A stretch of DNA of 64,000 nucleotides, from positions 1,144 to 65,143 of the forward strand of contig CAYQCH010000001.1 in the NCBI GenBank assembly GCA_964415935.1. The letters run 5' to 3'. The DNA is from an uncultured Gammaproteobacteria bacterium. Lineage in GTDB: Bacteria; Patescibacteriota; Patescibacteriia; VMEV01; CAYQCH01. Below the pieces are notes generated by a model. That model was not told the DNA's origin and did no database searches. It worked only from the letters and a program-made list of their open reading frames with translations. Below are positions 14,446-31,053 of the stretch, one piece after another (position 1 is the first letter of the stretch; each line of letters opens with the position of its first letter). The position numbers and the translations under genes are program-made.

Positions 14446-15720
14446 TTAAAACGTAATGGACGCAAGCGCGCCCTGCCATTCATTGACATTTACTAAAAAT
14501 GCTTCCATGAATTCCTCTGCCAGCGCCTCGCCTTCCGGAGCGTCAACTCGGGTGGGGTCAACGTATGCCCCGTACTCCGTCATGGAAAAGTGCACATGGT
14601 TGCCCGTAGAAAATCCGGTTGAACCGACATACCCGATGGTTTGTCCCTGTTTTACCCGGTCACCGATGCCCAAGCCCTTCACATAGGATGACATATGGGA
14701 GTACTGGGAACTGTATCGCTCATTATGGCGGATTTCAATGCGATTGCCATATCCGCCCGCCCAGCCTGACCGCGAGACAACGCCGTCGCCAATGGCAATA
14801 ATCGGCACGCCATAATCAGCGGCATAGTCCACGCCGTCATGCATCATTACTTTGCCCAAAATCGGATGAAAACGCGCATTGCTGAAACCCGAGCTGACAT
14901 ACCGAAAATTGACCGGCGCCTTTAAGAACGCGCGCTGCAACGATGCCCCGTCTGCCGTGTAATATCCTGGATCTTTTCCTTCCGGCTGAAAAAAGAATGC
15001 CTGAAACGTTTTCCCTTTGTTGGTGTATTCGGCGGCAAGAATCTTTCCTGGGGCCACAAACTGCCCGTCTTTATATTTTTCTTCGTACAGGACTTTGTAC
15101 GTATCTCCGGAAGCGGTGTCGCGCGCAAAATCAATATCCCAGGCAAACACGTCGGCGAAACGCATGATGGTGTTGTCCGAGAGGCCCTGCGCCAGCGCGG
15201 AGGCGTACAACGACCCCTCCACATTTCCTCCCCGCGTTGCGCGACGGATTTCATATTCGATGCGCTCCTCCTCAACAATCCAGCCAGCGGCGCTTTGCGT
15301 GGCTATAATGACCCGATTTGCATCAGGCTGGTACACCACCGAGGACAGTCCGTAGGAACTTCCTTCGTCAGCAAAAGCGAAATCCACGCTCTTGCCCACC
15401 TGGATATTAGTCAGGTCAAAGACCTTCTTGCTTGCCTGCTCGAGGAGGACTATTTCCGCGTAGGGGACGTCTGTGTCGGCAAAAACATCGGCAAGCGTGT
15501 CCCCTTCTTGCACGACATATGTTACGTCAGCTTCCGGCAGCTGGAGGCTTGGAGGCAACGGGTCTTCCTGGACGATATGGGTGTCAGCCGAAACCGTTTG
15601 AATGGTTTCCGACTTCTGCGGCCAGTATTTCCAGACGACGAATACGGCCGCGGCCAGCAAGAACAGCTTGCCGACCCGCCGCGAAGGAAACCGCCGCATT
15701 CGCGCGCCCCGCACCGGCAT
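14446..15720 (-). CDS. Peptidase M23 (LytM-type) with an N-terminal OapA/LysM-like region
   Basis: C-terminal VGSTGFSTGNHVHFS and HMSSY...D motifs of M23 metallopeptidases. Has an N-terminal signal anchor and lies directly downstream of ftsZ. Confidence 0.8.
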   Translation of the reverse strand: MPVRGARMRRFPSRRVGKLFLLAAAVFVVWKYWPQKSETIQTVSADTHIVQEDPLPPSLQLPEADVTYVVQEGDTLADVFADTDVPYAEIVLLEQASKKVFDLTNIQVGKSVDFAFADEGSSYGLSSVVYQPDANRVIIATQSAAGWIVEEERIEYEIRRATRGGNVEGSLYASALAQGLSDNTIMRFADVFAWDIDFARDTASGDTYKVLYEEKYKDGQFVAPGKILAAEYTNKGKTFQAFFFQPEGKDPGYYTADGASLQRAFLKAPVNFRYVSSGFSNARFHPILGKVMMHDGVDYAADYGVPIIAIGDGVVSRSGWAGGYGNRIEIRHNERYSSQYSHMSSYVKGLGIGDRVKQGQTIGYVGSTGFSTGNHVHFSMTEYGAYVDPTRVDAPEGEALAEEFMEAFLVNVNEWQGALASITF

Positions 15721-15724: not shown

Positions 15725-16972
15725 TTACATCATCTTCTTACGGATAAAGGCCGGAATTTCCAAATCTTCCTGATCAATATCCTGCTGGGGAGCGGCGGAA
15801 CGGCTGGATTCTTCCGCCCGCACGGGCTCGGTCATGATTGGGTTGGCGGCTAACGGCTCGGATCGAAACGACGGGGCCGTGTTAAAGGACCGCGGGGCCG
15901 CGGCCGGGCGCTCACTGGCCTGTTTATTCTGCTGGGACATGCGCATGAGCGGGCTGTTGTAGGCGCTGGCGGCCAGAGACTGGCCAAACGCCATGGTGTC
16001 GGCCTGATGAACAGATTTCGGCTGTTTGCCGAAACCGGCCGCAATTACGGTAACACGGACTTCATCTTTCATGTTCTCGTCAATAACCGTGCCGTAAATG
16101 ATCTTGGCGCTTGGATCGGCTTTTTCGGTAATGATGGTAGCGGCTTCATTCAGTTCATACATGCCCAAGTCCTTGCCACCAGTGATGGTAAACAAAATAC
16201 CTTTGGCGCCGTCGATGGAAACCTCCAACAAAGGACTGGAAATAGCTGCTTTGGCGGCATCAATCGCGCGATTATCGCCGGTGCCGTACCCAATACCCAT
16301 AAGGGCAGAGCCGGCATCTTTCATGATGGCTTTTACGTCAGCAAAGTCGACGTTGGTCACGCCATGCACGGTCACAAGCTCGGAAATCCCCTGCACGCCC
16401 TGGCGGAGGACGTCATCCACGATATCAAATGCCTCCACAAGCGTGGTCTTCTTTTCAATAACCTGCAAAATACGATCATTGGGGATGGTAATGATGGTGT
16501 CGACCTTGCTGGCCAACTCGTCATGTGCCTTTTCCGCGATCATTCCGCGTTGTTTTCCTTCAAACGAAAATGGTTTGGTCACCACGCCAATGGTAAGTGC
16601 GCCCAATTCCTTGGCGATACTGGCTACAATAGGGGCTGCGCCGCTGCCTGTGCCACCGCCCAAACCGCAAGTGATAAACACCATGTCGGTGTCTTTCAAC
16701 AATTCGCGCAGCTCGTTCTGGTTTTCTTCCGCGGACTTGCGGCCCATTTCCGGATCCATGCCAGCACCCAGGCCGCGAGTGACCGTTTTGCCGATATGTA
16801 CGCGCAGCGGCGCTCGCGAATGATGCAATGCCTGCGCATCGGTGTTCACGGCAATGAATTCGACGCCCCTGATTTTGGAGGCAACCATGGCGTTCACGGT
16901 CGATCCGCCGCTTCCGCCCACACCCACCACTTTTATTTTTGCGAACGTCTCGATTTCGGGTTTGATTTCCAT
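15725..16972 (-). CDS. ftsZ: Cell division protein FtsZ
   Basis: GGGTGSGAAP tubulin signature, NTDAQAL, and a conserved C-terminal peptide (DLEIPAFIRKK). Confidence 0.96.
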   Translation of the reverse strand: MEIKPEIETFAKIKVVGVGGSGGSTVNAMVASKIRGVEFIAVNTDAQALHHSRAPLRVHIGKTVTRGLGAGMDPEMGRKSAEENQNELRELLKDTDMVFITCGLGGGTGSGAAPIVASIAKELGALTIGVVTKPFSFEGKQRGMIAEKAHDELASKVDTIITIPNDRILQVIEKKTTLVEAFDIVDDVLRQGVQGISELVTVHGVTNVDFADVKAIMKDAGSALMGIGYGTGDNRAIDAAKAAISSPLLEVSIDGAKGILFTITGGKDLGMYELNEAATIITEKADPSAKIIYGTVIDENMKDEVRVTVIAAGFGKQPKSVHQADTMAFGQSLAASAYNSPLMRMSQQNKQASERPAAAPRSFNTAPSFRSEPLAANPIMTEPVRAEESSRSAAPQQDIDQEDLEIPAFIRKKMM

Positions 16973-17043: not shown

Positions 17044-18294
17044 CTATGGGATTATGGCCTTAAACCAAGATTTTACTTTTTCTTTGACAGAACCGAAGTT
17101 GGTAAAGCCCTGAAATCGGCCGCCGCTTCCCGCATGCATGTGCATGCCCCAGAGCAGCAAGCCTACGGCGACCGCATACATGGGGTCGTTTACCTTTTCA
17201 ATGGCCGTGGTCAACTCGCGCGGCACGCCGATTGAGGCTGGCAGGCGGAACTCCCGTTTAGCCACGTCGATAATGCCGTGCAGGCGCGAGCCGCCGCCGG
17301 TCAGGACCACGCCGGCCGGCAAAAGACCGCTGCGATTAATTTTCTTCAACTCTTTGTTCACCAGTTTAAAAATTTCTTCGATGCGCGCTTCGATGATTTC
17401 CGCCACCTGCCGGCGCGACACCAGATGGGATTCTCCTTCCTGGAACTCATTTAAATCAATCATTTCCTTTTTATCTACACTTTCTGGCAAAGACGTACCG
17501 TATTGCAGCTTCACTTGTTCCGCAATCTCTATGGACGTCCGTAACCCAATGGCAATGTCGGAAGTAATGTGACCCGCGCCCACGGGCAAGACTGCTGTAT
17601 GTAACACATCGCCTTCTTCGTAGACGACGACCGTGGTGGTTGCGCCGCCAAGGTTAACCAATGCCACACCCAGCTCTTTCTGCTGCTTATCTAGTACGCT
17701 TTCAGCAGCGGCCAGCCCAGCAAACACCGTGTCTTCAATGTCCAGCCCCGTGCGATAGACGGCTTTGGTAACGTTTTTTAATTGCGTGGAAAGTCCCTGG
17801 ATGATTTGCGCGTCGACTTCCAGGCGGATGCCGGTCATGCCTATGGGGTCTTTGATATGGCCCTGGTTGTCGACCGTATAAGAACGCGGGATGACATGCA
17901 AAATCTCGTAATTCGGCGGCGTTGCCACGGCCTGTGCCGCCTCAATGACGCGCTCCACGTCATCTTCGTTGATTTCTCCGTTCGCCTTGGAAACGGCAAT
18001 GACGCCTTTAGATGCCTGGGACAAAATATGGGCGCCGGAAATGCTTACAAAGGCACGCTCCAAAGGGACCCCGGCCATGCGTTCGCCCTTTTCTATGCAG
18101 CTCGTCAAGCAGGTAACGGCGTCTTCGATGCTGGTAACCACGCCTTTGCTTATGCCTTGCGAGGGGGTTTCGGCTACGCCAATAATATGCAGTTGCTGCC
18201 CCTCCCCGGCCTCATCCGGCACGAACTGACCGACTACCAAACGGATAGTCGATGATCCAATGTCCAACCCTGTAATGATATCGGACCGGCTCAT
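17044..18294 (-). CDS. ftsA: Cell division protein FtsA
   Basis: Actin-like ATPase motifs (GLDIGSSTIR, VNLGGATTTVV, LTGGGSRL) and position upstream of ftsZ. A TATATAAT -10 sits about 35 nt upstream. Confidence 0.9.
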   Translation of the reverse strand: MSRSDIITGLDIGSSTIRLVVGQFVPDEAGEGQQLHIIGVAETPSQGISKGVVTSIEDAVTCLTSCIEKGERMAGVPLERAFVSISGAHILSQASKGVIAVSKANGEINEDDVERVIEAAQAVATPPNYEILHVIPRSYTVDNQGHIKDPIGMTGIRLEVDAQIIQGLSTQLKNVTKAVYRTGLDIEDTVFAGLAAAESVLDKQQKELGVALVNLGGATTTVVVYEEGDVLHTAVLPVGAGHITSDIAIGLRTSIEIAEQVKLQYGTSLPESVDKKEMIDLNEFQEGESHLVSRRQVAEIIEARIEEIFKLVNKELKKINRSGLLPAGVVLTGGGSRLHGIIDVAKREFRLPASIGVPRELTTAIEKVNDPMYAVAVGLLLWGMHMHAGSGGRFQGFTNFGSVKEKVKSWFKAIIP

Positions 18295-18384: not shown

Positions 18385-18897
18385 TCAGCGGGCTTTCCGC
18401 TTTTGCTGCGAACCCATTTTTGACTCACCATTCATCCGAGTTATCAGACCGGCTTTATCCCCAAGATACTTTTGCTCCTCTTTAGCCATATCTTTCAAAT
18501 CGTCAGGCGTCTCATGGTCGTACCCAAGGATATGGAGCAGGCCGTGGGTAAACAATACGCGCGCTTCATCCGCCAGGCGATGCTTTTGTTCGCGTGCCTG
18601 CCGGCGCAAGGTGTCAACACTGATGATGATTTCTCCCAGGCAGCCGTCACTTGGCCAGCCCTCGCCTTCCAAAAAAGAAAACGACAACACATCTGTCGGG
18701 CCCTTTTTGCCGCGATGCATTGCGTTTAACTTGCTCATTTCACGATCTGAAACAAAGACGAGGGAAATGGAAACATTTCCACCGCGCAATGCACGCGGGT
18801 ATCCGCGCGACACAATCTCGTTTGCCAGTATATGCAGCGGCGCGACCGCAAAACTGACACGCGCCCGGCGCGAGACATCCAGAACAACGCGGTGCAT
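18385..18897 (-). CDS. ybeY: rRNA maturation endoribonuclease YbeY
   Basis: HGLLHILGYDH metal-binding motif, about 150-aa core. Confidence 0.85.
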   Translation of the reverse strand: MHRVVLDVSRRARVSFAVAPLHILANEIVSRGYPRALRGGNVSISLVFVSDREMSKLNAMHRGKKGPTDVLSFSFLEGEGWPSDGCLGEIIISVDTLRRQAREQKHRLADEARVLFTHGLLHILGYDHETPDDLKDMAKEEQKYLGDKAGLITRMNGESKMGSQQKRKAR

Positions 18898-18900: not shown

Positions 18901-19860
18901 TTACTGGGCCGCGGCGGTATCGCCCGAAGAGACAGAGAGGCTGTTGGTCATGGTGTCCCAAACCGCCGGGAATCGGAGTGATTTTTCCTGGCCGGCGTCA
19001 TAGTGCATGACAAACATCAGGGCACGTGACCCCGGGCCGCCATCGTCGAATGAAGCAATCACCAGCGTATGATCCTGAGTCTGGACACCGATCCAGCTTG
19101 ATTCATTTCGAAAATTGACATACTGCGTCAAATTGACCGACGGATCCTGCTGCTGCAGCCATTCTGTTACGGAAAGACGGGCCTCATTGTCGTATACCAT
19201 GATACGAAATGATTCGCTGCCCTGGTCAGGCCGGACAATAAACTCGCGTCCATCCGCGGTGCTGCGCGTGGCCGTCCAGGCGAGCGGCACGAGCAACTGG
19301 TAGCCCAAGCTCTCATTACGCGCAATTTTGATTTGCGGCGACACCTCAAGCAACGCGCGCGGCGTGGCTGGGTCATACAAGTTGCGCAACTCCACGCCAT
19401 CCAAAAAGCTATCCTGGTCCGTATCAGGCACGGACGCGCTGGTAAGGAACAGCTGCTCCTCAATGTCCGTCAAGCTGTCCTGGTCAGTATCAACCGCCAC
19501 TGGCAAGACGCCGCTGATGACGGCGGGTAACTGCACGCGCGGCGTGGCCACCGGCTGCTCTTGTACTGGCTGCGGCGCGGCTGGTTGCGCCGGCTGCTGA
19601 GGCTGTTGCTGCGCCGGCTGTTCGATAACCGGAGTTTGCTCGATCGGGGCTTGCGCAACAGGCGTTGTCTGGGGCGCGCGCGTAAAAAAGAGCACCAGAA
19701 CAATGATGACTAATAACGCCACGATGCCCAAAACAATCGCCAATATGGCAGTTGAGGAAAGCTTCTTTTTTTCCTTTGGCACATACGCATCAGGCATGAC
19801 AATCAGGCGGCCTGACAATGCCGATGACGGTGTTTCCTGTGGGGACATCTGGGTGGCCAT
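18901..19860 (-). CDS. Membrane-anchored protein with Pro/Gln-rich linker, TSP3-like Ca-binding repeats and a C-terminal unknown domain
   Basis: Single TM (ILAIVLGIVALLVIIVLVLFF), then a (QP)n linker. Repeats DTDQDSLTD and DTDQDSFLDGVE match the D-x-D-x-D-G/S motif. No family match for the C-terminal ~170 aa. Confidence 0.5.
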   Translation of the reverse strand: MATQMSPQETPSSALSGRLIVMPDAYVPKEKKKLSSTAILAIVLGIVALLVIIVLVLFFTRAPQTTPVAQAPIEQTPVIEQPAQQQPQQPAQPAAPQPVQEQPVATPRVQLPAVISGVLPVAVDTDQDSLTDIEEQLFLTSASVPDTDQDSFLDGVELRNLYDPATPRALLEVSPQIKIARNESLGYQLLVPLAWTATRSTADGREFIVRPDQGSESFRIMVYDNEARLSVTEWLQQQDPSVNLTQYVNFRNESSWIGVQTQDHTLVIASFDDGGPGSRALMFVMHYDAGQEKSLRFPAVWDTMTNSLSVSSGDTAAAQ

Positions 19861-19863
19861 AGG

Positions 19864-20544
19864 TTATGGATTGGTTGGGGCGGCGGGAGGCGCGTCCTGC
19901 GGCTGAGTTTCTTGTTGCCCCAGTTGCTCCTCTTCTGCTCCCGGCAACGTCAAAAGCTTCGCACCGACGGCATTCGGATCATATCCGGAGCGCACTTCCA
20001 TGCCATCGGGGTAGCCGTCATTATCGGAATCCGGATCCAACGGGTCGGTGTTCCACACGCGGATTTCGTCGTAATCCGTGAGGCCGTCATCATCTGAATC
20101 GACAAGCGTCGGGTTGGTACGGTTTTCAGCTTCTTCTTCATCGGAAAGACCATCGCGGTCCGTATCCACCGGCAGTTGCGTTTCAGACGCAGGAGTTTCC
20201 GTCAGAGGGACAACCGGCAATGCCTGGGTGTCCGCCGTTTGCGTCGTCGGCAACTGCGTTACTGGCTGTTGCAGCTGGTTTGCCGCGGGTGCAGGAGTTT
20301 GCCGGCTCAGATAGATGTACACCAGCGCTACGGCAATGACAACAAAACCTAACACCGCGATAACGGCAATGATGATAAGCGTTTTACTGGGCCCGGACGC
20401 CACGACGTCCTCTACAGCAGATGGCGATGGCGGCGAAGACTGGCCAGATTGATTCGGCAGCGAAGGACGAACCAGCTGCGAGGGGGCGGCATCTTGCTCC
20501 GCGCCTTCAAAAATATCTTCCGGTTCTTTTGTGTCTTCAAACAT
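19864..20544 (-). CDS. Membrane-anchored protein with three thrombospondin type-3-like Ca-binding repeats (paralog of the preceding gene)
   Basis: Single TM (LIIIAVIAVLGFVVIAVALVYIYL). Repeats DTDRDGLSDEEE, DSDDDGLTDYDE and DPDSDNDGYPDGME. Pro/Gln/Thr-rich linker and C-terminus. Confidence 0.5.
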   Translation of the reverse strand: MFEDTKEPEDIFEGAEQDAAPSQLVRPSLPNQSGQSSPPSPSAVEDVVASGPSKTLIIIAVIAVLGFVVIAVALVYIYLSRQTPAPAANQLQQPVTQLPTTQTADTQALPVVPLTETPASETQLPVDTDRDGLSDEEEAENRTNPTLVDSDDDGLTDYDEIRVWNTDPLDPDSDNDGYPDGMEVRSGYDPNAVGAKLLTLPGAEEEQLGQQETQPQDAPPAAPTNP

Positions 20545-20553
20545 ACGACAAGG

Positions 20554-21165
20554 TTAAATGGTAGGTTCAGGCAATGCCTCTGGATTTGCAAAGACTTCAT
20601 ACTGATCCAGCAAATCATTGCTATTGCGATCTACATAGAGATCTGACCGCTTTTCAGCCACATGCGCCGCGCATTCTTCGCTCAAATTCTGTATAAAAAT
20701 ATCAGCACATACCGAAGCGGCAATACGCCCTTGTACGGCCTGAAACGACAAGTGCCGCATGATGCATGTTTGGGACTGCGGTCCGGACTGGAGCTGCGCG
20801 CACAAACCCTGTTGTTCAGGGCTGAGCATCGCGACCGTTTGAGCCCACGCTTGCGGATTCGGGGGCAAAGCTACGGCGCCCGGAGCCGACACTTGTTGCG
20901 GCATATTAGAATATAGGTTCAGGCCATCCAGCAATGCGTTCAGCCGCTCTTCAGAAAGACGCGAAACATAGTTAATGGGCTTGAACTGTCGTTTTGTCTG
21001 CTCATCCACGATGTCGGAATAGGTATACAACCCGCTTGCGCGGTCAATCAACAACACCCGTTCTTCGGCATTATACAACTGCTGGCGTCTGGCAAGCGTG
21101 TAAACAAGCCAACCTGATGCCGCAATAGCGAGCAGCACGACGACAAGAATAATTTTCTTATTCAT
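20554..21165 (-). CDS. Hypothetical N-terminally anchored exported protein (203 aa) with 4 Cys
   Basis: N-terminal signal-anchor MNKKIILVVVLLAIAASGWLV. No recognisable domain. Co-directional with a 5-nt gap to the neighbouring gene. Confidence 0.4.
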   Translation of the reverse strand: MNKKIILVVVLLAIAASGWLVYTLARRQQLYNAEERVLLIDRASGLYTYSDIVDEQTKRQFKPINYVSRLSEERLNALLDGLNLYSNMPQQVSAPGAVALPPNPQAWAQTVAMLSPEQQGLCAQLQSGPQSQTCIMRHLSFQAVQGRIAASVCADIFIQNLSEECAAHVAEKRSDLYVDRNSNDLLDQYEVFANPEALPEPTI

Positions 21166-21170
21166 ATTTC

Positions 21171-23801
21171 TTAGAGCGCCTGCAAGAAGTCACACACGCG
21201 ATTATTATCAACATCTACGCATCCTAACACATAGGTCGTATTGCTTGTCGTCGAGGTTTGACCCTGGCTTGGGTCAGTCTTGGTGCTATTTCCTAGCCAC
21301 ACCATAAATCCTTGTCCTTGCTGGAAGTTCACGCGGTAGGTGTCTTGCGGCAAGAGATTGCCGCTGGGATCGCGACGGTCACGCAAGTGTTCGAGGACGA
21401 CAATGCCGCCGTTTGTGTCGATTTCCTTGGCATTCGGAAGGTAGATCCTGCCGCGGGCATACCCGCCGTTCGCCCAGGTTTCATTCGCGACCACTTCGTC
21501 GATAACCGCATCGCTGAGATTCAGTCGATGCATGGCGTTGTCATTGCCGCAATGTTCGCCATGCTTTGGAATAAAGTACGTCTGATACCTTACTTCCTGT
21601 CCGTTATACCGCCCCATCATGAAATGACCGCCGCACCCGCCATGAAACCAGGTTACAGAATCCGTCATCAACGGATATGGCAGTTTATAGTGCGAGGCGT
21701 TATACGGCCATCCCCACGGTGAACCAAACGACTGGCCATTGCGCGTAAAACTTTGTGAAGATGCGCCCGTGCAAGTCATTTGCAATTCCTCGGAAGTGGT
21801 ATCTGCCATGCTCCAACCCCAGGCACCCTTGTTCGCCACACAAAATGATTTGCGAGTATCGGCAACCACAGCATAGCTTGCTGTAACTTTGTTATTGGCC
21901 ACCTGACAGCTCTGGCACAAGCCCGGTGTTTTGGCATCATCGCATTTTTCAGGACCGTTCACCGTGCCGTCACCACAGAAACCAACCTGCCTGCATGCGT
22001 CATACGGCCCCCAGGTACAAAGAGGGTTTTGGGGCGTTGCTTCCTGAACACAGCGACGCAGTTTGTAAAAGTATGTTGGTTCAGGCTCGCAAGGAACGTC
22101 CTGCGTCTGGTTATCGCATGCCTCAAACGGGATATTGCGCGCTCCATCACCACAATACGGGCCACGCACGACATCGATTTTGCAGGAATTGGTGCAGTAG
22201 TTACAGGTTTTTCCGTACGCAGGCACGCAACGCTGTCCGTTCTTGTTGGACTCATCGCATTCTTCTCCCTGGTCAGCCTGAACGATGCCATCACCGCAGC
22301 GGGGGCCAAGCGCTTCCTGCACTTTGCAAACGCTGCTGCAGTAGGTGCAACGCTGCGCATATGCCGCCTGGCATTGCACGCCGTTTTGCTCAGATTCATC
22401 GCACGTCTCCAACCCGTTTATGATGCCGTCCCCGCAGGTTTCAATGGGCTGGCAATCAGTCCAAGGGGCGTATCTGCATGTATTGCGACAAACACGCACA
22501 CGTTGCGTGCGGTAGCCATTGATAAACGTGGAACACAACTGCGTTTCGTTATTCCCGTCGCATTCTTCGTTGAGGCCCTGCTCATTGGGGGTCTGCACCG
22601 TCCCGTCGCCGCAATACGCTACGGAGCGGACTGAACGGCAGTCTGCGGCGCATTCCTGGAACTCATTCACGCCTGATTGGCCGTCGCAAGCTTCGGTTCC
22701 TTCCGTGACATTATTACCGCAGGTTTGAAAATCGCATACGTCGCCGACGCCATCGCCGTCAAGATCTGTCTGATCTGAATTTCCGATCGTCGGACAGTTA
22801 TCTAAATTTCCGCAAACGCCATCGTTGTCCTGGTCGTTGGTGGGGTCATTTGGACAAGTGTCACAGGCGTTTCCCACGCCGTCACTGTCGGAATCAGACT
22901 GATCGGCATTGCTCACCGCCGGACAGTTGTCCACGGCGGCCCCCACCCCGTCCCCGTCAAAATCAGCGGAGTCGGCCGCGCTGAAGTTAAAGCATTGCCC
23001 GGCAGTCTGGTCGGAAAACGATTGCGTGCGCCAGCTGCCTGGTCCCTGATATTCAAAATTTGTAAACAAGTTGTAAGACAACCCGTCGGGATTGACTCGG
23101 TATGCATAGGCATATGCCTCGGGGGGACAGGAAAACTGCCTGTCTTCAACGGACCAGCAGGTCTTGGTATCATACGGGTCTTTGCAACCGATGAATTCAT
23201 TGCGCGGGTCAACGGGCACAGCAACACCGAGCAAATTCCCAAGTGTGGCCTGCCAGGACGGCCATGTGCTGTAGGTAGTGTTGGGTAAATAACTCCCCGC
23301 TTCAAAAACCGGATACTTGCCGGTCTTGACCCGGTACGACTCCAGATATCCCTGAATGTTGTTCAGGTCAGCGGCACGATGCATGTCGCGACGGATCTGC
23401 TCGCGCGTGGTCCTGTCAGTAATGTTCGTATTCAGCCGGAACTGCCTGAGAAATTCATTAAATACGGCCTGAACGGACTCGTCAGCCGTTTCGCTGTAAG
23501 AAATAAGATAAATATTGCTGTACAAGGTGCGAGAGTTGGCGTCGTAATTTGTTGCAGCCACATATACGGAGCGGCCGTCACGAACAGCAGGATATCCGTC
23601 GACTTCAAGCGCCGCGGGATTCCCAGGATTTGGCACGTTCGCGCGATACCATGTCAACGGAGATAGCCTGTCAGGGTTGGGAATAATACGTATGCCAATG
23701 GCCTGCCCGCGCCCAGTGTCTTGCGCCCGCGCAGGAAAACCGACTGCCGAGGCGGCAAACAGGCAGAAAACAATTGCTATGTAATATAGTGACTTTCTCA
23801 T
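21171..23801 (-). CDS. Large secreted cysteine-rich protein: TSP3-type repeats plus at least six Myxococcus-type cysteine-rich repeats (CGDG...EECD)
   Basis: Signal peptide from Met25 (MRKSLYYIAIVFCLFAASAVGFPARAQ). Repeats DSDSDGVGNACDTCPNDPTNDQDNDGVCGNLDNCP...DLDGDGVGDVCD. Six CGDG(x)n(E/T)CD units (e.g. CGDGIVQADQGEECDESNKNG). Cys-rich C-terminal domain. Confidence 0.6.
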   Translation of the reverse strand: MRKSLYYIAIVFCLFAASAVGFPARAQDTGRGQAIGIRIIPNPDRLSPLTWYRANVPNPGNPAALEVDGYPAVRDGRSVYVAATNYDANSRTLYSNIYLISYSETADESVQAVFNEFLRQFRLNTNITDRTTREQIRRDMHRAADLNNIQGYLESYRVKTGKYPVFEAGSYLPNTTYSTWPSWQATLGNLLGVAVPVDPRNEFIGCKDPYDTKTCWSVEDRQFSCPPEAYAYAYRVNPDGLSYNLFTNFEYQGPGSWRTQSFSDQTAGQCFNFSAADSADFDGDGVGAAVDNCPAVSNADQSDSDSDGVGNACDTCPNDPTNDQDNDGVCGNLDNCPTIGNSDQTDLDGDGVGDVCDFQTCGNNVTEGTEACDGQSGVNEFQECAADCRSVRSVAYCGDGTVQTPNEQGLNEECDGNNETQLCSTFINGYRTQRVRVCRNTCRYAPWTDCQPIETCGDGIINGLETCDESEQNGVQCQAAYAQRCTYCSSVCKVQEALGPRCGDGIVQADQGEECDESNKNGQRCVPAYGKTCNYCTNSCKIDVVRGPYCGDGARNIPFEACDNQTQDVPCEPEPTYFYKLRRCVQEATPQNPLCTWGPYDACRQVGFCGDGTVNGPEKCDDAKTPGLCQSCQVANNKVTASYAVVADTRKSFCVANKGAWGWSMADTTSEELQMTCTGASSQSFTRNGQSFGSPWGWPYNASHYKLPYPLMTDSVTWFHGGCGGHFMMGRYNGQEVRYQTYFIPKHGEHCGNDNAMHRLNLSDAVIDEVVANETWANGGYARGRIYLPNAKEIDTNGGIVVLEHLRDRRDPSGNLLPQDTYRVNFQQGQGFMVWLGNSTKTDPSQGQTSTTSNTTYVLGCVDVDNNRVCDFLQAL

Positions 23802-23869
23802 AAGGACACGGGGCGATTCATTGAAATGATACCAATTTCCCAGCCTGCGGTCTCTGTGTATAAAAGACA

Positions 23870-26800
23870 TCATTCAATGATGAACAGTGATTCCTTTAAC
23901 ACGCCCCCGACATTCTGGCCGGTAACGGGGCTGGACAGGGGCGGCAAGTCGTCATCAAACCCCGGCTCGCCGGCATCTCGGCAATAGAAAATGTCGTAAT
24001 TGAATGCCGTGTCGACGTACGGGAAGGACGTGATATCCGGCCACGGATTTTCACACAAGAAGGTTACGACATCCAGTGTGCGTGAAATGGTGCCCTGAGA
24101 CGGGGCCTGGGCGCGCGCCGTTACCGTCACCGTCGCTTCGCCATTCTGTGGATTCGGCGTCATTTCCACCTGCTCCCCCGTTGCAGGATCAAGCGTCAAA
24201 ATGGGGTCGCCTTCCACAGTCCAGGTAAAGTCAGCCGGGACAATGAATCCCGCTCGGTCGCGTCCGGTAGCCAGATAGGCATGCTGGTTCCCTTCTTTAG
24301 TCGCGTTTACGTCTCCCGGGCAGTCGTTTCGAGCGGCGCAGAATGCAACATCCAGGCGGCCGGGCTCACCGGGAGGCGTGATAAGGACATCCACGTAGTC
24401 GAGCTTGCATTCCGCTTTGCCTGTCCTGAACGTCCTGACATCTTCCCCGCTGACCGCAACGTTAAACGAGTTGCGTACTCCTTCGGGAACGTTGTCATCG
24501 AGGTTCAGGTCCCCCACCGTCCGAACGCGGTACTGGCGGTCATCCTGGAGTTTTTGCTTCGGATATACGCGGGCGCTGCTGCCGACGTCCGTATTTGAAA
24601 CGCTGACGCTGGACTCAACGCGGCACCAGTTTTCTCCTTGCGCCTGCGTGGCGGGAATCACCCAGGACAGCGCGCGGGAGGCATAGTATTTTGCTTTTGG
24701 CCACCATGCCGTAGGCGCCACGGAAGGGCATGGGATGCCGCCATTATTGATTTCCAAAATGATGCCGCTGACCAAAGACGCCTGGTTCATGGGCTGGTCA
24801 AACTCTAGCTCTATACCCAGCGTCGTACAGACGGCTTCGGCACCGTTTCGCGGATTGCTACCGATAATCCCAGGGCGCGGATAGCAGCATGAATCGGATC
24901 CGACGCCATGCGACTGGACCGTAGCCGGAGATGGACATTGATTGTCGGTTTGAAAACCGCATTGCACCGTAAAATCTCCTTCACCATTAACCCCCTGGGT
25001 GGAGGCGCGCACCTTTGTGGATCCTTCGCCGCGGCTGGTGGTAATTTGCGCCCAGTCCTTGAAATTCTCTAAAGGCAATACATCTTGCTGGGTAACGGAA
25101 GCAACCTTTGGAACGGATACGCCCCAGACCCAGTCCATGGTATCGCCGCGCAGAATCTGACCATACTGGTTACATGCGTCAGCGGGAGCTACCGGCAACG
25201 CCTGGTAGTTGAATTCTTCCAATATGAGGCTGGATATGGCTGTAGGCGGATCAATAAGCACGTCTTCAATCTGACACTGATTGGGGTCATTTCTGGTGCT
25301 GAATAGCCAGGAATAGCTGTCAATGGTGCCATCCCCGTCGGCGTCGTAGTTTAATCCCGAAAGCGGCAGCCCGCTTGCGCTGCGCATGCCCTTGAGGACG
25401 ACGCGGTACTTGGTGGCGACTTTAAACGCGCTGATATTAGGCAGGAAGTGCAGGGTAAAGCTTGTATTGTTATAGGTCAGGCTGGTTACGCCGATACTGG
25501 CGGTATTGGCGCGCGCGCAGGCCGCGTCTTTACATTCGTGTAATTCCACGTTGGCGTTAGCCGTAACCGAAGCTTCCTGCATTTCTTGATTGAATTTCGC
25601 GCCCAACGCGGCGTTGATGCAAGCGCTTGAGCAATTCGGCCATTTATCCACCACCAAAGGCGGCTCCAAAGAAATACGCAACTGACCGCTGTCTTCCTTG
25701 CTGAACTCCGGAATGGACGCAATGATATCAACCGCCGGGCCAGGATCGGTGGCACCTTTCGCCGTGGCGCGATTTTGGTATGTCCTGGACGTTTCCAGAA
25801 CAGCTTTTGATGTATCCGCGCTCAGCCAGCCCCATGTATAGGCGCTGCCGTCGAGGATATTGCAATTCAAGGCAGTGGCAACGCCCGTATACGCTTGCGT
25901 CGCACCAACTTTTTTCAACGTGGCCGTGGCTGGTGTCACTTCGACATGATCAACAGCACAGGCCCCTTCTCCCGACTGCGTCTTAAACGTCCATCGATAC
26001 GGGTTTTCCATCCTGTTGCCGTTTTCCGCTTCCACGGTATTGGCAATCGTTACCTGGTACCAGGTGTCAGGAACAAACGCCGGTTGAGGCTGGGCGATAA
26101 AGCCTTCGCCCGGCTGATTGGAATTGATGATGACAAAATTACTGAGGCTCACCGTTGTTTGGCAGCTACCGCCATCAAAGGAAGGGCCGGTGTTGCAGCG
26201 GCGCAGCTCAACTGTTCCCGCGTTCAGCGTGGCGTCCTTCATATCATGGGTAAAGCGGGCGGAAACAGCCGCGTTCAAACAAGCATCAACGGTGTCCTTA
26301 AATGGTGACGGGCTTTGCGTGTTGTTTTTGCACGTCGCTTGCTCGATGACGCGCGGGATGCCGCCCAGGTCGTCGCCCGTGCCGAATGTCCAGGAATACG
26401 TACACAACGGCAGGGCCTCGGAACAGGTTCCGGCGGCCTGGCATGCTCCAGAAGAGCAGCATTCAAAGCCTGTTCCGCACGTGTCCGGGCTGCATTGTCC
26501 AACACGGAAGTTCAACCCGTTGCTTAGTTGTCCCGTGGAGGCAATGACTTGTACCAATCCCGTCTGGGCCGTGGGCGGCACGGCTACGCGGATCTGCCCG
26601 TCGTTCCAGGAAACAACGTCCGAAATATCAACGCGCGAATGGAAGCGTACGCCCCCCTTGTTTACGCCGAATCCCTCGCCATACAACACGGTTTCAATGC
26701 CTAGCGGGCCGTTGTCAGGTTCCATGGCGCACAGTCCGGGCAACCGGCCGCCGGCGGTAACGGTAAAGCTGGCCGGATTGCTGCGACCAGCATCTGTTTC

Positions 26801-28864
26801 TAAAAATACTTCGTAAATACCTGGATCCAGGCGCGGGACCCGGAACGCGCGCTGCTCGCCTTTGCGGAAGAAGCGCAAACAGCTGTCCGGCAGTCTGGTG
26901 TCGGCCAGCGTGACTTCACCTGTGCGCGGGTTTAAAAACTTCACAAGCGGCGTGCGCGACAAATTTTCGCCGATGATGGAGAAAATTTGTCCGACCGGGC
27001 CGCGATCCGGAGAAACGGAATCCAGGCGCGGCAACGTAGGCGATGAGGTCACAGACATGAACACCGGATTGCTGGTCAACGGACCTACCTGCACGCGCAC
27101 GGGCACGACACCCTCCGGCAGGGATGGCACGACCACATCGGAAATCTGTTCGTCTGCCCAGGTGCCGATGCGTCCGGCCCTGGCTTGTCCAAAGGAAACA
27201 TCGCCTAGCGTGGCTCCAAAGCCGTTGCCGCGCAGCGTAACCGGCTCTCCAACTTGCTGGCTGCCCGGTTCAACCGCGCATAAACCCGGGCGCCGCGTGT
27301 CGTTGATTTCAAAAATCACGCGTCCACCCTTGTCGTCATCGGTGGTGTCATACAACCCCTCTGCCGTGGTCAGACGAAGCGCGCCTGTGCGAGCGTTGGC
27401 AGGCACCTGCAGCACGACCTGCGTGTTGCTCCAGGCCCCGACGCATGGAAACGCGTCAACCGTTGCATCGTCGTCGTCCGCGCTCAAGCCAAGAAACACA
27501 AGCGTACCGGTTTCTGTTCCGAAATTACGTCCGCGGACGGTAACAAAATTTCCAGGCGCGCCATTGGCCTCAATCACTTCTTCAATCACCGGATAGTCAC
27601 GGCAGAATCCGCCGACACAGAGGCCGGAGGCGCACTGCGAATTTTCCGTACACGCGGCGCCCTGGCAGAGACGGCAGGTCGGGCCGCCGCAATCGACGCC
27701 TTCTTCATCCTCATTCTGCTGGCCGTCAAAACAATAGGCGGGCAAAATTTCCACGGATATTTCCGGGCTCAGCCCGGTCTGTCCCGCTAAATCAACGGCC
27801 GCGGCTGTAATGGCGTGACGGCTCTTTAGCGCAAGATCGATGGTAAGCCAGGTCGCGCTGCCGCGAAATTCAGTAACGACATCGGGACCGGAAGCCGGCG
27901 CCACGCCCACGGACGATCCATCAACAAAAAATTCCAAAAAGGCCACGGCATAGTCGTCCAATGCCAGGGCTTCCAACAACACGGAGCTGTTCTGCCCCAC
28001 CGCCGCGTCATTATATGGCAAAGTCATGCGAGCCGTGGGAGCGATGGTATCGACAGCCTCACCGGTCACAAATCCAAATGCGCACTGCGAAGTTGGCGAC
28101 GGACAACGGAAGGCATCGCCATCGGCGCTGGTCAAAGCGGAACTTATAACCGCTTCATAGGCCACATTCGCGTCAAAGCAGCGGACTTGTTCATTCGGCG
28201 AGGGACAAGCCTGGTTGGGAACGAATATGGCCCGGCTTCCCTTTACCGACCACGATCCGGCTACAGGAGCTGTTTCACCGGTCTTGCGGACATAGGCATT
28301 CTGCTCAATACCGGTCTGCGTGATGTCCTGGTTAAACAGCAGCTGCACCTGGACGTTGCGGATGGGCACCACGCCGGAAGGCAAGGCATCAATGAGCAAC
28401 AACGCGTCGCGCGTGTCCAGGCCGCTTTGTCCGACCGGCTGCGACAAAGGCGCCTGCTGGCTGGCTCGGCGCTGCTGGCTGCGAATGACAACGAAGCTGA
28501 TAAGCAGCAGTACCGCACAGAGCACGAATACAATGCCAAACACCAGCGCCAGGCGGCGGCCGCGCTCCAAAACAAGGATGTCATTGTTCTGGCTGCCATT
28601 TCGCCAAAGCACGATGCCGTAACTCATGCCTGCCAGGCTGAGAATGAGGCCGACGAATGCGGTTAACTGCAATACGCGCCATACCGTACTCGGCTGAGCT
28701 GCTTCCACTGTGGTTTGCGCCACATTTTGCGACGACGCGCCTTCCGTGACCTGAACGGCGTCCTGGGCCAGAGCCGGAATGGCCACAGCAAAGACTGCAC
28801 CCCAGGCAAACAAAGCGGACACAAGCATGGATCGAAAACAGCGCATACTCAAGCTACGGACCAA
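23870..28864 (-). CDS. Giant surface protein (1664 aa): signal peptide plus TrbC/VirB2-like two-helix membrane hairpin, then Ig-like (Big), Cys-knot and IPT/TIG repeat arrays
   Basis: N-terminus: signal peptide (...AIPALAQ), then hydrophobic helix, W-R-N-G-S-Q-N-N loop, hydrophobic helix. Multiple IPT/TIG-like units (PRLDSVSPDRGPVGQIFSIIGENL, LCAVEPGSQQVGEPVTLRGNGFG). Has D..AP-type Big starts. No LPXTG or C-terminal TM. Overlaps or abuts the upstream gene. Confidence 0.6.
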   Translation of the reverse strand: MVRSLSMRCFRSMLVSALFAWGAVFAVAIPALAQDAVQVTEGASSQNVAQTTVEAAQPSTVWRVLQLTAFVGLILSLAGMSYGIVLWRNGSQNNDILVLERGRRLALVFGIVFVLCAVLLLISFVVIRSQQRRASQQAPLSQPVGQSGLDTRDALLLIDALPSGVVPIRNVQVQLLFNQDITQTGIEQNAYVRKTGETAPVAGSWSVKGSRAIFVPNQACPSPNEQVRCFDANVAYEAVISSALTSADGDAFRCPSPTSQCAFGFVTGEAVDTIAPTARMTLPYNDAAVGQNSSVLLEALALDDYAVAFLEFFVDGSSVGVAPASGPDVVTEFRGSATWLTIDLALKSRHAITAAAVDLAGQTGLSPEISVEILPAYCFDGQQNEDEEGVDCGGPTCRLCQGAACTENSQCASGLCVGGFCRDYPVIEEVIEANGAPGNFVTVRGRNFGTETGTLVFLGLSADDDDATVDAFPCVGAWSNTQVVLQVPANARTGALRLTTAEGLYDTTDDDKGGRVIFEINDTRRPGLCAVEPGSQQVGEPVTLRGNGFGATLGDVSFGQARAGRIGTWADEQISDVVVPSLPEGVVPVRVQVGPLTSNPVFMSVTSSPTLPRLDSVSPDRGPVGQIFSIIGENLSRTPLVKFLNPRTGEVTLADTRLPDSCLRFFRKGEQRAFRVPRLDPGIYEVFLETDAGRSNPASFTVTAGGRLPGLCAMEPDNGPLGIETVLYGEGFGVNKGGVRFHSRVDISDVVSWNDGQIRVAVPPTAQTGLVQVIASTGQLSNGLNFRVGQCSPDTCGTGFECCSSGACQAAGTCSEALPLCTYSWTFGTGDDLGGIPRVIEQATCKNNTQSPSPFKDTVDACLNAAVSARFTHDMKDATLNAGTVELRRCNTGPSFDGGSCQTTVSLSNFVIINSNQPGEGFIAQPQPAFVPDTWYQVTIANTVEAENGNRMENPYRWTFKTQSGEGACAVDHVEVTPATATLKKVGATQAYTGVATALNCNILDGSAYTWGWLSADTSKAVLETSRTYQNRATAKGATDPGPAVDIIASIPEFSKEDSGQLRISLEPPLVVDKWPNCSSACINAALGAKFNQEMQEASVTANANVELHECKDAACARANTASIGVTSLTYNNTSFTLHFLPNISAFKVATKYRVVLKGMRSASGLPLSGLNYDADGDGTIDSYSWLFSTRNDPNQCQIEDVLIDPPTAISSLILEEFNYQALPVAPADACNQYGQILRGDTMDWVWGVSVPKVASVTQQDVLPLENFKDWAQITTSRGEGSTKVRASTQGVNGEGDFTVQCGFQTDNQCPSPATVQSHGVGSDSCCYPRPGIIGSNPRNGAEAVCTTLGIELEFDQPMNQASLVSGIILEINNGGIPCPSVAPTAWWPKAKYYASRALSWVIPATQAQGENWCRVESSVSVSNTDVGSSARVYPKQKLQDDRQYRVRTVGDLNLDDNVPEGVRNSFNVAVSGEDVRTFRTGKAECKLDYVDVLITPPGEPGRLDVAFCAARNDCPGDVNATKEGNQHAYLATGRDRAGFIVPADFTWTVEGDPILTLDPATGEQVEMTPNPQNGEATVTVTARAQAPSQGTISRTLDVVTFLCENPWPDITSFPYVDTAFNYDIFYCRDAGEPGFDDDLPPLSSPVTGQNVGGVLKESLFIIE

Positions 28865-30470
28865 CGCAAGGCTGGTAGCAATTCTGATAAATGTCTTTTA
28901 CGTTTGATGACACAACGGGCGTGTATGTCGCATTCTCATCCAACCCTGCGTGCACCATCTGCACGACCGTCTGATTTTCTTCCACGGACGAAGAAATCTG
29001 ATAATCAAGCCCGGGAACCTGCACGGTCTGGCGGTTGATGGTCTTTAACCACAGGGGTTTATCGAAGGTAACGGTCAAGCGGCTGTCGCGCGGGACCAGC
29101 GTGGCGTATGGCTGCGGCGATACCGCGCTCACGACGGGCGCGCGCAGGTCTATCTGGTCAGTGGTTTGAAAACTCCAGGCGAAGTCGTCGGCCGGGCTGC
29201 CTTGCGCTGCGCCGTCGACATTGCCATCAAAGGAGTTGCCTGACGCATCTACGACGCCGTCAAACGGAAAGACGGCCACCGGCGGTTGCGCGCTGACCGT
29301 GGCAGCGCGGACGCGTGCCGTAAACTTGGCGCTGGGCGGCAAGCAAAACACGTCCTGGCCGCAGGAATTGGTGCCACATAAATCATTGGTGACGAATTCG
29401 GCCGTGCGGTACTGGTTGCTGATGGTAAACCGGCCTGCCACCACTTCCCCGTTCTGTCCGCGCACGCTCAGGTTGTTAAATCCGCGCGCGGTATCGCCGC
29501 TGACGGCCAAGGGGTTCATGGCTTCGCTGAACGTCACCTGCACGATAATGTTGCGAGCATACGTCTGATCCGGTTGCGGGATAACGCTGACCACGCGCGG
29601 CGGCTCCAGATCAACAAACGTCCCCACCTCGAATTCCCAGGTATAGGCGCCGAAATTACCAAACGCCCCCCTGCCGGCCGCGGTGGAAATGCCCTCTCCC
29701 AGCGTTACGCGATACAGGGTGTTTTGTTCGGCGCTGCCGAGCAAGTCAATGGGGTCAATGACCAGGATGCGGGCGTCGTCGCTGACTGCCGCGCGCGCCG
29801 GAACAAACGGACCGGACTGCGGGTCATCGCTGGCCTTGGAGATAAAAATATTTTGGCCGTTAATCTCGTCGTCGGCCGGATCTTCCGTGCCCTTGTTATT
29901 AATGAGTGAGTCAACCAGCATGGGCTCAACGAAACTGACCATGATGTTGGTGTTGCGCGCAAGATTGGTCTGGCCGCGGTCGGGATAGTGCGATTCGATT
30001 ACGCCCAAAGGAAATCCGCCGCCCCCGCCCAAAAACCCGCCTGTGCCGCGGCGGCCAAAGGATGACGGTTGTGTCTCCGGACCGCCCACCAGGCGGTTGA
30101 GGACGAACGTTACAATGCCGAAAGAAGACAAGATGATGATCAAACCAATCAGGCCGTTGCGCAACAGCGTCTTGGCCGTATTGACCTGGTCATCATTGCC
30201 CGCCGCGGTCATCCAAAGATATCCCGCATATAAAAGCAGCCCCAGGGCGACAATTCCTAAAAAGCCCAGGGCCACTTGTATGACGCGCGCGATAATGACG
30301 CGCGGGTCGCTTCCGCTCAATCCAACCGATTCCGCTTGCTCCAGCCCGACGTCTACCGTCTGGGCAAAAGCCGGTTCATGCAAAACCAGGGATGAAACAA
30401 GCAACGCGGCGATGATGAATCCCGCGAAAATGATGATGCGTTTCAACCCCGAAAGCATGGGAACTTGCAT
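28854..30470 (-). CDS. Surface protein (538 aa) with TrbC/VirB2 pilin-like N-terminal anchor followed by SbsA-type Ig-like (Big_5) domains
   Basis: N-terminus: signal peptide (..HEPAFAQ), then QVALGFLGIVALGLLLYAGYLWMTAAGNDDQVNTAKTLLRNGLIGLIIILSSFGIVTFV, two hydrophobic helices with a short polar loop as in VirB2/TrbC. Gly-rich linker. Two Ig-like modules begin PRVVSVIPQPDQTYA and RAPVVSAVSPQPYATL. Confidence 0.55.
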   Translation of the reverse strand: MQVPMLSGLKRIIIFAGFIIAALLVSSLVLHEPAFAQTVDVGLEQAESVGLSGSDPRVIIARVIQVALGFLGIVALGLLLYAGYLWMTAAGNDDQVNTAKTLLRNGLIGLIIILSSFGIVTFVLNRLVGGPETQPSSFGRRGTGGFLGGGGGFPLGVIESHYPDRGQTNLARNTNIMVSFVEPMLVDSLINNKGTEDPADDEINGQNIFISKASDDPQSGPFVPARAAVSDDARILVIDPIDLLGSAEQNTLYRVTLGEGISTAAGRGAFGNFGAYTWEFEVGTFVDLEPPRVVSVIPQPDQTYARNIIVQVTFSEAMNPLAVSGDTARGFNNLSVRGQNGEVVAGRFTISNQYRTAEFVTNDLCGTNSCGQDVFCLPPSAKFTARVRAATVSAQPPVAVFPFDGVVDASGNSFDGNVDGAAQGSPADDFAWSFQTTDQIDLRAPVVSAVSPQPYATLVPRDSRLTVTFDKPLWLKTINRQTVQVPGLDYQISSSVEENQTVVQMVHAGLDENATYTPVVSSNVKDIYQNCYQPCVGP

Positions 30471-30500
30471 AGCAAGAAAGGGTGTGGATTGTATTTGTGT

Positions 30501-30752
30501 TTAGCGTCGGCGATCTCGTCTTTGTTCTTCAGGGAGCTGTCCGGTTTTTCGGAGCCATTCCCGTTTTTCTACCACTTCAAGGCGCCGCAATGCGCGCTCT
30601 TTCTGTCGGCGCTTGTTTTGCGTCCGTTCGTGGAAGCGGATTTTTCTGGCTTGAAAAATCTTACCGCTTTCCAGCACGCGCTTGTTAAAGCGTCGCAGCA
30701 AGGAGTCAAAACGCTCGCCTTTCTTCTTTTTTACGTCAACTACAGCTGACAT
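30501..30752 (-). CDS. rpsU: 30S ribosomal protein S21
   Basis: 83-aa basic protein MSAVVDVKKKKGERFDSLLRRFNKRV... with an Arg/Lys-rich C-terminus, as in S21. Confidence 0.8.
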   Translation of the reverse strand: MSAVVDVKKKKGERFDSLLRRFNKRVLESGKIFQARKIRFHERTQNKRRQKERALRRLEVVEKREWLRKTGQLPEEQRRDRRR

Positions 30753-30933
30753 GCTGTCACCGTCCTTTCAGTTGTATAAATAATGAGGGCAGTTTTTTGC
30801 TCGCTGCCGAATGCCAGCGTACCAAAAAACAGGCTGGTGCGTCAACTACCGGATGATGCGATACTTTGATAACAACGTTTTAAAAAACCGGCTGTTCATG
30901 AACCTACTTTCCAAACATATTTTAGCAAAAGAA

Positions 30934-30990: not shown

Positions 30991-31053
30991 GGTGCGAAGA
31001 ACCAAGGATCAAGAATCCAAAAGTTCCAAGTTACCAAAGACCAAGTTCCTAGT

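Follow-up and report, generated by a model that had tools for sequence, protein, structure and literature searches.

A conserved module of candidate surface proteins with pilin-like hairpins between rpsU and ybeY in Patescibacteria

Genes and domains of the block

The window analysed here is a stretch of 64,000 nucleotides (nt) from contig CAYQCH010000001.1, and all positions below refer to it. We describe a block of genes on its minus strand, at 18901-30470, that separates rpsU from ybeY. The block contains six open reading frames (ORFs), A to F, encoding candidate surface proteins of 538, 1664, 876 or 900, 203, 226 and 319 amino acids (aa), respectively. The initial annotation of this DNA had counted seven genes, but its own list also names six. 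Relatives of the module are found in the same gene order in other Patescibacteria, and its products may form fibrils on the cell surface.

Gene A (28854..30470, minus strand, as are all genes of the block) encodes a signal peptide, a hairpin of two hydrophobic helices, a Gly-rich linker and three Big_5 domains with conserved cysteines (93 bits with Pfam). Gene B (23870..28864) has a TTG start codon, with an alternative ATG start at 28846, six codons downstream. Its product of 1664 aa consists of a signal peptide, a diverged hairpin and a stalk of immunoglobulin-like (Ig-like) domains. The proteins of the window were scanned with Pfam and NCBIfam, B being taken as ten overlapping pieces. In B this yielded Big_5, Big_7, four TIG and several further Big_5 domains, at least ten Ig-like domains altogether. 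The protein also contains two Cys-rich knots, and its last ~180 aa matched no family in the piecewise scan.

Gene C occupies 21171..23801 if it starts at M25 (876 aa); the full ORF reaches 23873 (900 aa). The start at M25 matches the identical database protein P0151 (876 aa) and yields a clean signal peptide. C contains TSP_3 repeats (Pfam, E=5e-12) and Cys-rich acidic repeats of the NCBIfam family TIGR02232 (myxo_disulf_rpt). A profile of C compared with PDB sequences matched only the TSP3 repeats of COMP and thrombospondin-2. Gene D (20554..21165) encodes a membrane anchor at the N-terminus and a small domain containing cysteines, and has no match in Pfam or NCBIfam.

The last two genes encode proteins with a single transmembrane helix preceded by a predicted cytoplasmic tail. 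In E (19864..20544) the helix is followed by a Pro/Gln-rich linker and three TSP3_bac repeats (Pfam, E=5e-14). In F (18901..19860) it is followed by a Pro-rich linker, two DxDxDG loops and a C-terminal domain resembling PsbP, Mog1 and LpqN (aa 166-310, 18931-19365). F belongs to no Pfam family. The loops were seen only through a PDB profile match to the calcium-binding region of Staphylococcus Bap (E=8e-4), and the sequence identity of the C-terminal domain to PsbP/Mog1/LpqN-like proteins is only 8-15%.

The modules named in the initial annotation (TIG, Big, TSP3 and Myxococcus-type Cys repeats) are thus the ones recovered by the Pfam and NCBIfam searches. The label "eukaryote-like" given to them there is uninformative, as bacterial surface proteins often contain TSP3, TIG and Big domains. 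The same scans revealed no SLH or CWB wall-binding family in any of A to F. No LPXTG/sortase signal, type I secretion retention module, autotransporter domain or lipobox was found by them either, although no dedicated search for sorting signals was made. The sole membrane element of A and of the B/C protein is the N-terminal hairpin.

The block is tightly packed. Gene A starts 30 nt after rpsU (ribosomal protein S21; 30501..30752, minus strand; Pfam Ribosomal_S21, 29.3 bits; TIGR00030), which forms the upstream boundary. A and B overlap by 11 nt with the TTG start of B, or are separated by 7 nt with the ATG start. With the 900-aa version of C, this gene overlaps B by 4 nt; with the start at M25, 68 nt separate the two. 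The next gaps are 5 nt (C-D), 9 nt (D-E), 3 nt (E-F) and 3 nt (F-ybeY). Downstream, on the same strand, are ybeY, encoding the rRNA maturation RNase (18385..18897; Pfam YbeY, E=8e-34; TIGR00043), ftsA (17044..18294; TIGR01174, 394 bits), ftsZ (15725..16972; TIGR00065, 409 bits) and a Csd3-like M23 peptidase gene (14446..15720; Pfam Peptidase_M23 and Csd3_N2), with gaps of 90, 71 and 4 nt after ybeY, ftsA and ftsZ. Together with HtrA further downstream, these are the flanking genes named by the initial annotation, and their identities hold by Pfam and NCBIfam.

All genes from rpsU to ftsZ lie on one strand, with spacings ranging from an overlap of 11 nt to a gap of 90 nt. The number of terminator-like hairpins in the window (26) is at chance level (20.7 +/- 4.7 in shuffled sequences), and none of them is strong. 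Promoter-like sites are also at chance level in our scan. No Rfam element and no tRNA gene was found in the window. Co-regulation of the block with ybeY and ftsAZ is suggested only by the short gaps and by the lack of any convincing terminator.

Gene order and ancestry in Patescibacteria

Protein A has 112 detectable homologs, and all named sources of these are Patescibacteria (Uhr-, Falkow- and Buchananbacteria). Exact look-ups in public assemblies gave no match for A or for the 876-aa C, and for FtsZ only a contig of 2.2 kb. With the alignment of A as the query, a scan restricted to one representative genome per species found a relative in at least 528 genomes. We took 80 loci from different Patescibacteria genomes, each with 10-kb flanks on both sides; the identity of their A proteins to that of the window is 31-61%. 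All window proteins were compared with these loci by tblastn, followed by ORF calling and, for E and F, by searches with hidden Markov models (HMMs).

The order recurring in these loci, as far as their DNA extends, is lepB-hisS-rpsU-(~146-aa ORF)-A-giant gene-E-F-ybeY-(~122-aa ORF)-ftsA-ftsZ. The rpsU gene precedes A in nearly all related loci. E-like genes were seen after the giant gene in 26 of the loci extending far enough downstream; the corresponding counts are 13 for F, 7 for ybeY and 5 for ftsA. Three loci, L001, L003 and L004 (A identity 61, 39 and 48%, respectively), were compared gene by gene and have the same order. In L001 and L004, which span the whole module, the short intergenic gaps are the same as well. 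Thus the homologs are not scattered singly outside the rpsU-ybeY context, an outcome that would have spoken against the initial annotation.

Codon usage tells the same story. The relative synonymous codon usage (RSCU) of genes A to F correlates with that of the housekeeping genes of the window at r=0.95, and two halves of the housekeeping set correlate with each other at 0.954. A comparison of this kind, with ribosomal genes, had been proposed in the initial annotation as a way of telling acquisition from ancestry, and by this measure the block looks native. The view expressed there, that the block is not a random island, is borne out by synteny across 31-61% identity of A together with native codon usage.

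The opposite explanation would be a recently acquired adhesin island that landed between rpsU and ybeY by chance. The GC content of A, B, E and F (0.57-0.58) is slightly above the window average, as might be expected of such an island. However, the synteny and the RSCU values argue against it, no tRNA genes were found in the window, and no mobile-element families were found among the scanned flanking ORFs. The probability of this explanation is negligible, and we consider horizontal transfer to be ruled out by synteny and codon usage. Judged by gene order and codon usage, the block is a vertically inherited, lineage-specific ancestral surface-protein module. The named members of the lineage that have it are the Uhr-, Falkow-, Komeili-, Buchanan- and Kuenenbacteria, all from the Patescibacteria, or candidate phyla radiation (CPR). 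We take these to belong to the GTDB class ABY1.

The most prominent difference between the window and most relatives concerns genes B and C. In most relatives, A is followed by a single ORF of 2,200-3,480 aa, typically ~3,300 aa, that matches first B and then C. In four fused giants the match to the last domain of B stops 8-49 residues before the match to the N-terminal domain of C (N-domain) starts. For example, in the giant of L003 the last domain of B covers residues 1775-2046, and the N-domain of C covers residues 2054-2389. The two genes are split in the lineage of the window and in L001, L004, L007, L060 and L066, exactly at that domain boundary. By this comparison B and C are the N- and C-terminal halves of one ancestral giant protein, and C acquired its own signal peptide after the fission. 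Since B and C are fused in most relatives and the junction falls on a domain boundary, they are likely to act as one physical unit.

Gene D was found only in L001, L004 and L007 (25-29% identity) and in the near-identical strain L005 (97%). Going by this distribution, D is a recent addition limited to the closest relatives. The fusion of B and C in relatives and the restricted occurrence of D define the core module as A, B/C, E and F.

The A proteins also vary at the C-terminus. Outside the lineage of the window, A homologs mostly carry an extra C-terminal Cys-rich tail (P.CC.G......C; alignment A1, columns 740-783). The A protein of the window and the proteins of 526-538 aa most similar to it end in ...YQNCY.PCVGP.

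Two small genes of the recurring order are missing from their places in the window. The first is the ~146-aa gene between rpsU and A, present in most relatives and coding for YqeY in L003. It is absent from the window (30471-30500) and from the closest relatives. The second encodes a ~122-aa membrane protein between ybeY and ftsA in relatives (L013 19398-19817, L044 17961-18335, L052 20803-21204, L080 20815-21183) and is not found at this place in the window. Its motifs (EQN..., E..N[ST]A.E...D) resemble, by eye, those of the diacylglycerol/undecaprenol kinase DgkA. In Bacillus subtilis and other Firmicutes, rpsU-yqeY and ybeY-dgkA are adjacent pairs. Because of these pairs, the surface module appears to have been inserted into an old ribosome-biogenesis neighbourhood.

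Hairpins, distal domains and the structure they may form

The N-terminus of A consists of a signal peptide (aa 1-37) and a two-helix hairpin with a short loop (aa 59-127; 30090..30296, minus strand), as read directly from the sequence. B and its relatives, by reading of sequences and alignments, likewise start with a signal peptide followed by two hydrophobic helices and a short loop. The hairpin of A scores 25.2 bits with the Pfam family T4SS_pilin (PF18895) at aa 59-123, against a cut-off of 26.6. It also matches the NCBIfam model NF045849 ('Mbov_0395 pilin-like', conjugal transfer) with E=1e-7. Precomputed matches to PF18895 exist for most A homologs, and T4SS_pilin is matched by B of L003 as well. 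The B protein of the window has no such match, and an HMM built from the hairpin of A found no second hairpin protein in the window, B included.

In most relatives a motif almost identical to that of A, LYAGFLWMT..G...KV.KAK..I.NA.IGL.IIL, stands at the N-terminus of the giant, and a Gly-rich linker comes after it. The version in the B proteins of the window and its closest relatives is diverged. Thus the pilin-like anchor that the initial annotation had described as shared by A and B is found in the family, through the motif in the B proteins of relatives, whereas in the window itself the hairpin of B has drifted beyond recognition by the HMM.

The two helices of the hairpin are the best conserved part of A, with mean column identities of 0.70 and 0.66 in 18 diverse A proteins. 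The corresponding values are 0.46-0.60 for the Ig-like domains and 0.47 for the single transmembrane helix of F. This exceeds what a passive anchor would need, and the helices are probably engaged in specific contacts with one another or with some machine.

One such machine could be a type IV secretion system (T4SS) encoded elsewhere in the genome. In that case A and B would be true pilins, whose hairpins are polymerised into a VirB2-type pilus decorated or tipped by the Ig-like extensions. The Pfam and NCBIfam matches and the excess conservation of the hairpin over the ectodomains agree with this, and VirB4 systems and small VirB2-like pilins are widespread in Patescibacteria genomes (PMC12102498). 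However, no VirB4, VirB6 or other T4SS family was found among the scanned ORFs of the window or in the conserved neighbourhood (L001, L003, L004). Further, A of the window is below the Pfam cut-off, the hairpin of its B is diverged, and extensions of 400 to 3,000 aa on each subunit would seem ill-suited to the tight helical packing of VirB2. We consider this possibility very unlikely.

The opposite end of the fibril protein would be formed by C. An AlphaFold2 model of C was built from 19 sequences (mean pLDDT, the predicted local distance difference test, 73.5). In the N-domain (aa 30-275; 22977..23714, minus strand) block-mean pLDDT values of mostly 80-93 for aa 40-160 drop to ~61-75 between there and aa 250. 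The model shows a beta unit, then a long helix and a small sheet. The domain has 25 invariant positions in 19 sequences (alignment A2) and 47 in 12 sequences (alignment A4), and carries invariant W-P-S-W, T-C-W and C-P motifs. It has no Pfam model, and searches of Pfam and of PDB sequences gave nothing except the Pfam family T2SSG with E=0.028. This sole signal, which would relate it to the globular domain of type IV pilins or of pseudopilins of the type II secretion system, was not accepted.

A profile of the N-domain found 1,464 cluster representatives at E<=1e-10. The domain forms the N-terminus of proteins of ~800-1,100 aa or lies far from the ends of giants of 2,000-6,000 aa, and some proteins of up to ~6,000 aa hold two to four copies. 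We propose it as a candidate new domain family.

The beta sandwich at the C-terminus of C (aa 640-876; 21174..21884, minus strand) is confidently modelled over aa 640-870. It is also the least conserved part of the protein, with 0.48 against 0.74-0.77 elsewhere in 11 close homologs. The tip is likely to be a jelly roll resembling lectins and carbohydrate-binding modules (CBM), and is a candidate contact surface. A Foldseek search of the model against PDB returned nothing at E<=1e-3.

The tails of E and F that are predicted to lie in the cytoplasm contain short conserved motifs. The homologs of E begin with MFDD and have an acidic (E/D)DIF or DDMF before the transmembrane helix, and these are kept in distant relatives. 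The homologs of F have hVMPxxF/Y some ten or more residues before the helix. M22 and P23 of F do not vary among 25 sequences, and relatives with as little as 23-28% identity still have the motif. The motifs are encoded in the segments 19780-19860 (F tail) and 20470-20544 (E tail). Since the tails are otherwise variable, the motifs point to a cytoplasmic binding partner. Similar tails may also occur in other CPR membrane proteins.

FtsA or FtsZ might be such a partner, by analogy with the pairs PilN-PilM and FtsN-FtsA. The EDIF and VMPxxF/Y motifs of E and F would then direct the module, or its assembly, to the division site. The order F-ybeY-ftsA-ftsZ is conserved, and so are the linear motifs within variable tails of distant relatives. 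But adjacency and analogy are all that this idea is built on. F is separated from ftsA by ybeY and, in relatives, by the ~122-aa ORF. No homology to PilN, PilO, FtsN or a known FtsA- or FtsZ-binding protein was seen in Pfam, NCBIfam and PDB profile searches, and the motifs could bind any cytoplasmic partner. We give it little credence.

The hairpin and the tails can also be combined in a single speculative scheme. A and B/C would polymerise together, by way of their VirB2-like helices, into a filament that is rooted in, or extruded from, the membrane and clad in Ig-like stalks; E and F would couple it to FtsA/FtsZ or to another cytoskeletal partner. We regard this scheme as quite improbable. 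If it were true, the module would be a hitherto overlooked type of surface filament, specific to CPR, that is positioned by the division machinery and does not depend on a T4SS nearby.

The best-supported reading, which we hold to be moderately probable, is that the module forms membrane-anchored fibrils mediating attachment to a partner cell or a surface. A and B+C would be secreted and held in the cytoplasmic membrane by the conserved VirB2/T4SS-pilin-type hairpin, both ends of which would face outwards once the signal peptide is removed. From the hairpin would project a stalk of Ig-like domains, three in A and at least ten in B. By a rough estimate, 10-25 such domains would give fibrils of about 40-100 nm. 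The distal part, formed by C, would carry the unnamed conserved N-domain, calcium-binding TSP3 repeats, disulfide-rich repeats and the variable lectin-like jelly roll, which is the likely contact surface. E and F, single-pass proteins with a short cytoplasmic motif and with calcium-binding loops outside, most likely serve as a membrane-proximal base that organises or stabilises the fibrils; F would end in the PsbP/LpqN-like domain as an interaction module. The domain content is compatible with a role in calcium-dependent adhesion or matrix building, as the initial annotation had it.

Because the genes form a tightly packed same-strand run from rpsU through ybeY to ftsA-ftsZ, they are probably expressed constitutively with the housekeeping genes. 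The product may be a permanent coat of membrane-anchored fibrils. Attachment is preferred as the function because an episymbiotic lifestyle is inferred for CPR and because other CPR giants have been read in this way: the giant membrane proteins of Vampirococcus lugosii (PMC8080830) and the FhaB-domain giants of Patescibacterium danicum (PMC11809585) were both interpreted as fibres of host attachment.

Several points weigh against attachment fibrils. The model stands on evidence from sequences and predicted structures. Adhesins are usually patchy in their distribution and evolve fast. The module, on the contrary, occurs almost throughout its lineage at one constant place among housekeeping genes, and a core structural role would account for this at least equally well. 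The conservation of the hairpin is above the need of a passive anchor. The 10-kb flanks restrict the evidence on E, F and ybeY to the 26, 13 and 7 loci, respectively, whose DNA extends to them, and the promoter and terminator scan speaks neither for nor against a single transcript.

Some of these points would be accommodated by a core envelope layer. Here A and B/C would make up a constitutive S-layer-like or wall-spanning scaffold, with E and F as its membrane base, renewed during growth and division. A near-universal occurrence in the fetched genomes, at a fixed place beside rpsU, ybeY, ftsA, ftsZ and the M23 peptidase gene, is what one would expect of such a layer, as is the strong conservation of all parts apart from the tip. 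Big_5 is, we presume, also the type of Ig-like domain found in the S-layer protein SbsA of Geobacillus. That the structure and formation of the CPR envelope remain unclear (PMC5220378) leaves room for a layer of this kind. Conversely, the Pfam scans revealed no SLH or other wall-binding domain, and the succession of anchor, stalk and variable tip is the layout of a fibril and not of a lattice protein. A variable lectin-like tip, moreover, suggests recognition of a ligand. We consider the envelope layer rather unlikely, though a serious rival, and attachment fibrils remain our preferred reading.

The fibril model can be compared with known systems. Fibrillar adhesins such as Bap, SasG, SiiE and those of the LapA type have the same succession of an anchor, an Ig-like stalk (Big_5, Big_7, TIG) and a distal binding-type domain, for which the tip of C is a candidate, together with calcium-binding repeats. 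The loop region of F matches Staphylococcus Bap, and the tip is likewise the most variable part. However, the anchor here is an N-terminal VirB2-like hairpin instead of an LPXTG/sortase signal, a type I secretion retention module or an autotransporter barrel. Further, the structure is distributed over several genes (A, B/C, E and F), which are near-universal in the lineage and reside in a housekeeping locus, not patchy or mobile.

The T4SS pilins VirB2 and TrbC (PF18895) are ~100-150 aa long and are encoded near virB4. They share with A the signal peptide and two-helix hairpin, the Pfam and NCBIfam similarity and the strong conservation of the helices, and the same holds for the VirB2-like arrays of Saccharibacteria and other Patescibacteria (PMC12102498). 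But the hairpin of the module bears 400 to 3,000 aa of extracellular domains (A has 538 aa, B 1664 aa, the fused B/C ~3,300 aa), and no T4SS gene adjoins the block in the window or in the related loci.

C and E share TSP3 and TIGR02232 Cys-rich acidic repeats with the Myxococcus proteins MtsC and MtsD (cell-cell cohesion) and CglD (gliding). These matches are limited to the repeats, and the NCBIfam scores are far below the cut-offs: 58.6 against 350 for C with MtsC, 31.8 against 800 for E with MtsD and 24.4 against 400 for E with CglD. Unlike the Myxococcus proteins, those of the module have no MYXO-CTERM signal, and both the organism and the envelope are different.

The C-terminal domain of F resembles the PsbP/Mog1p-fold proteins (LpqN of M. 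tuberculosis, cyanobacterial PsbP and DcrB of Salmonella). However, F, with its single transmembrane helix, Pro-rich stalk and calcium-binding loops, is neither a lipoprotein nor a lumenal subunit. S-layer proteins differ from the module by their wall-binding domains, as no module of the SLH or CWB2 type is present here.

The giants of V. lugosii (PMC8080830) and P. danicum (PMC11809585) are likewise very large predicted surface proteins of ultra-small host-dependent bacteria, but their domains are different (WD40, PKD, integrin, FhaB). The P. danicum giants with FhaB domains reportedly lack full-length homologs elsewhere (PMC11809585), whereas the giant of the present module recurs in hundreds of species beside the same neighbours. 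By sequence criteria, the parts of the module are of known kinds, and their combination falls outside the pilins, the known adhesin anchors, the S-layer proteins and the Mts/CglD equivalogs. In the searchable literature, outside which most subscription-journal papers fall, we found no description of the cluster, of T4SS_pilin hairpins joined to giant ectodomains, or of fibrillar adhesins in Patescibacteria.

A considerable part of bacterial diversity belongs to the Patescibacteria; they are mostly uncultivated and presumably live attached to other cells. The construction of their envelope and most of their mechanisms of attachment are unknown (PMC5220378). In the large group of ultra-small and probably host-dependent bacteria that have it, the module is a good candidate for a structure that builds the outer surface or attaches the cell to a partner. 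Giant surface proteins of these bacteria have so far been treated as lineage-specific (e.g. in P. danicum, PMC11809585). A module of four to six genes, present in hundreds of species, with constant housekeeping neighbours, an unusual pilin-type anchor and a widespread domain that has no model, is a testable candidate for a core surface structure of the whole class. Its proteins provide targets for cryo-electron tomography, for proteomics and for identification of hosts by antibodies or fluorescence in situ hybridization. The variable tip may serve as a handle for predicting the specificity for the partner.

Flanking genes

Other genes next to the block are lexA on the downstream side and hisS and lepB on the upstream side. 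Farther out, the window contains housekeeping genes, among them those of an LCP protein, Der, ATP synthase, rpoD and dnaG.

Between hisS and rpsU there is an ORF of 280 aa (31054-31896, minus strand) that has no Pfam family. The GC content of this stretch is 0.605, and a plus-strand ORF (30811-31686) overlaps it. A sigma-70-like promoter match, TTGACA-17-TAATAT, was observed just upstream of the 280-aa ORF, at 31995-31967. As hisS immediately precedes rpsU in relatives, the ORF looks like a lineage-specific insertion.

The dnaG and rpoD genes are adjacent (49372-52434, minus strand) and lie ~19 kb away from rpsU. Thus the classical operon rpsU-dnaG-rpoD is not intact in the window.

The region 43000-49400 has a strong positive AT skew (0.17-0.29) over ~6 kb. 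It contains a plus-strand ORF of 874 aa (46706-49330) with no Pfam family, which is overlapped by several minus-strand ORFs.

Finally, a protein of 456 aa (10153-11523, minus strand), encoded between uppS and lexA, contains two tandem SLOG domains of the LOG/'lysine decarboxylase' type.

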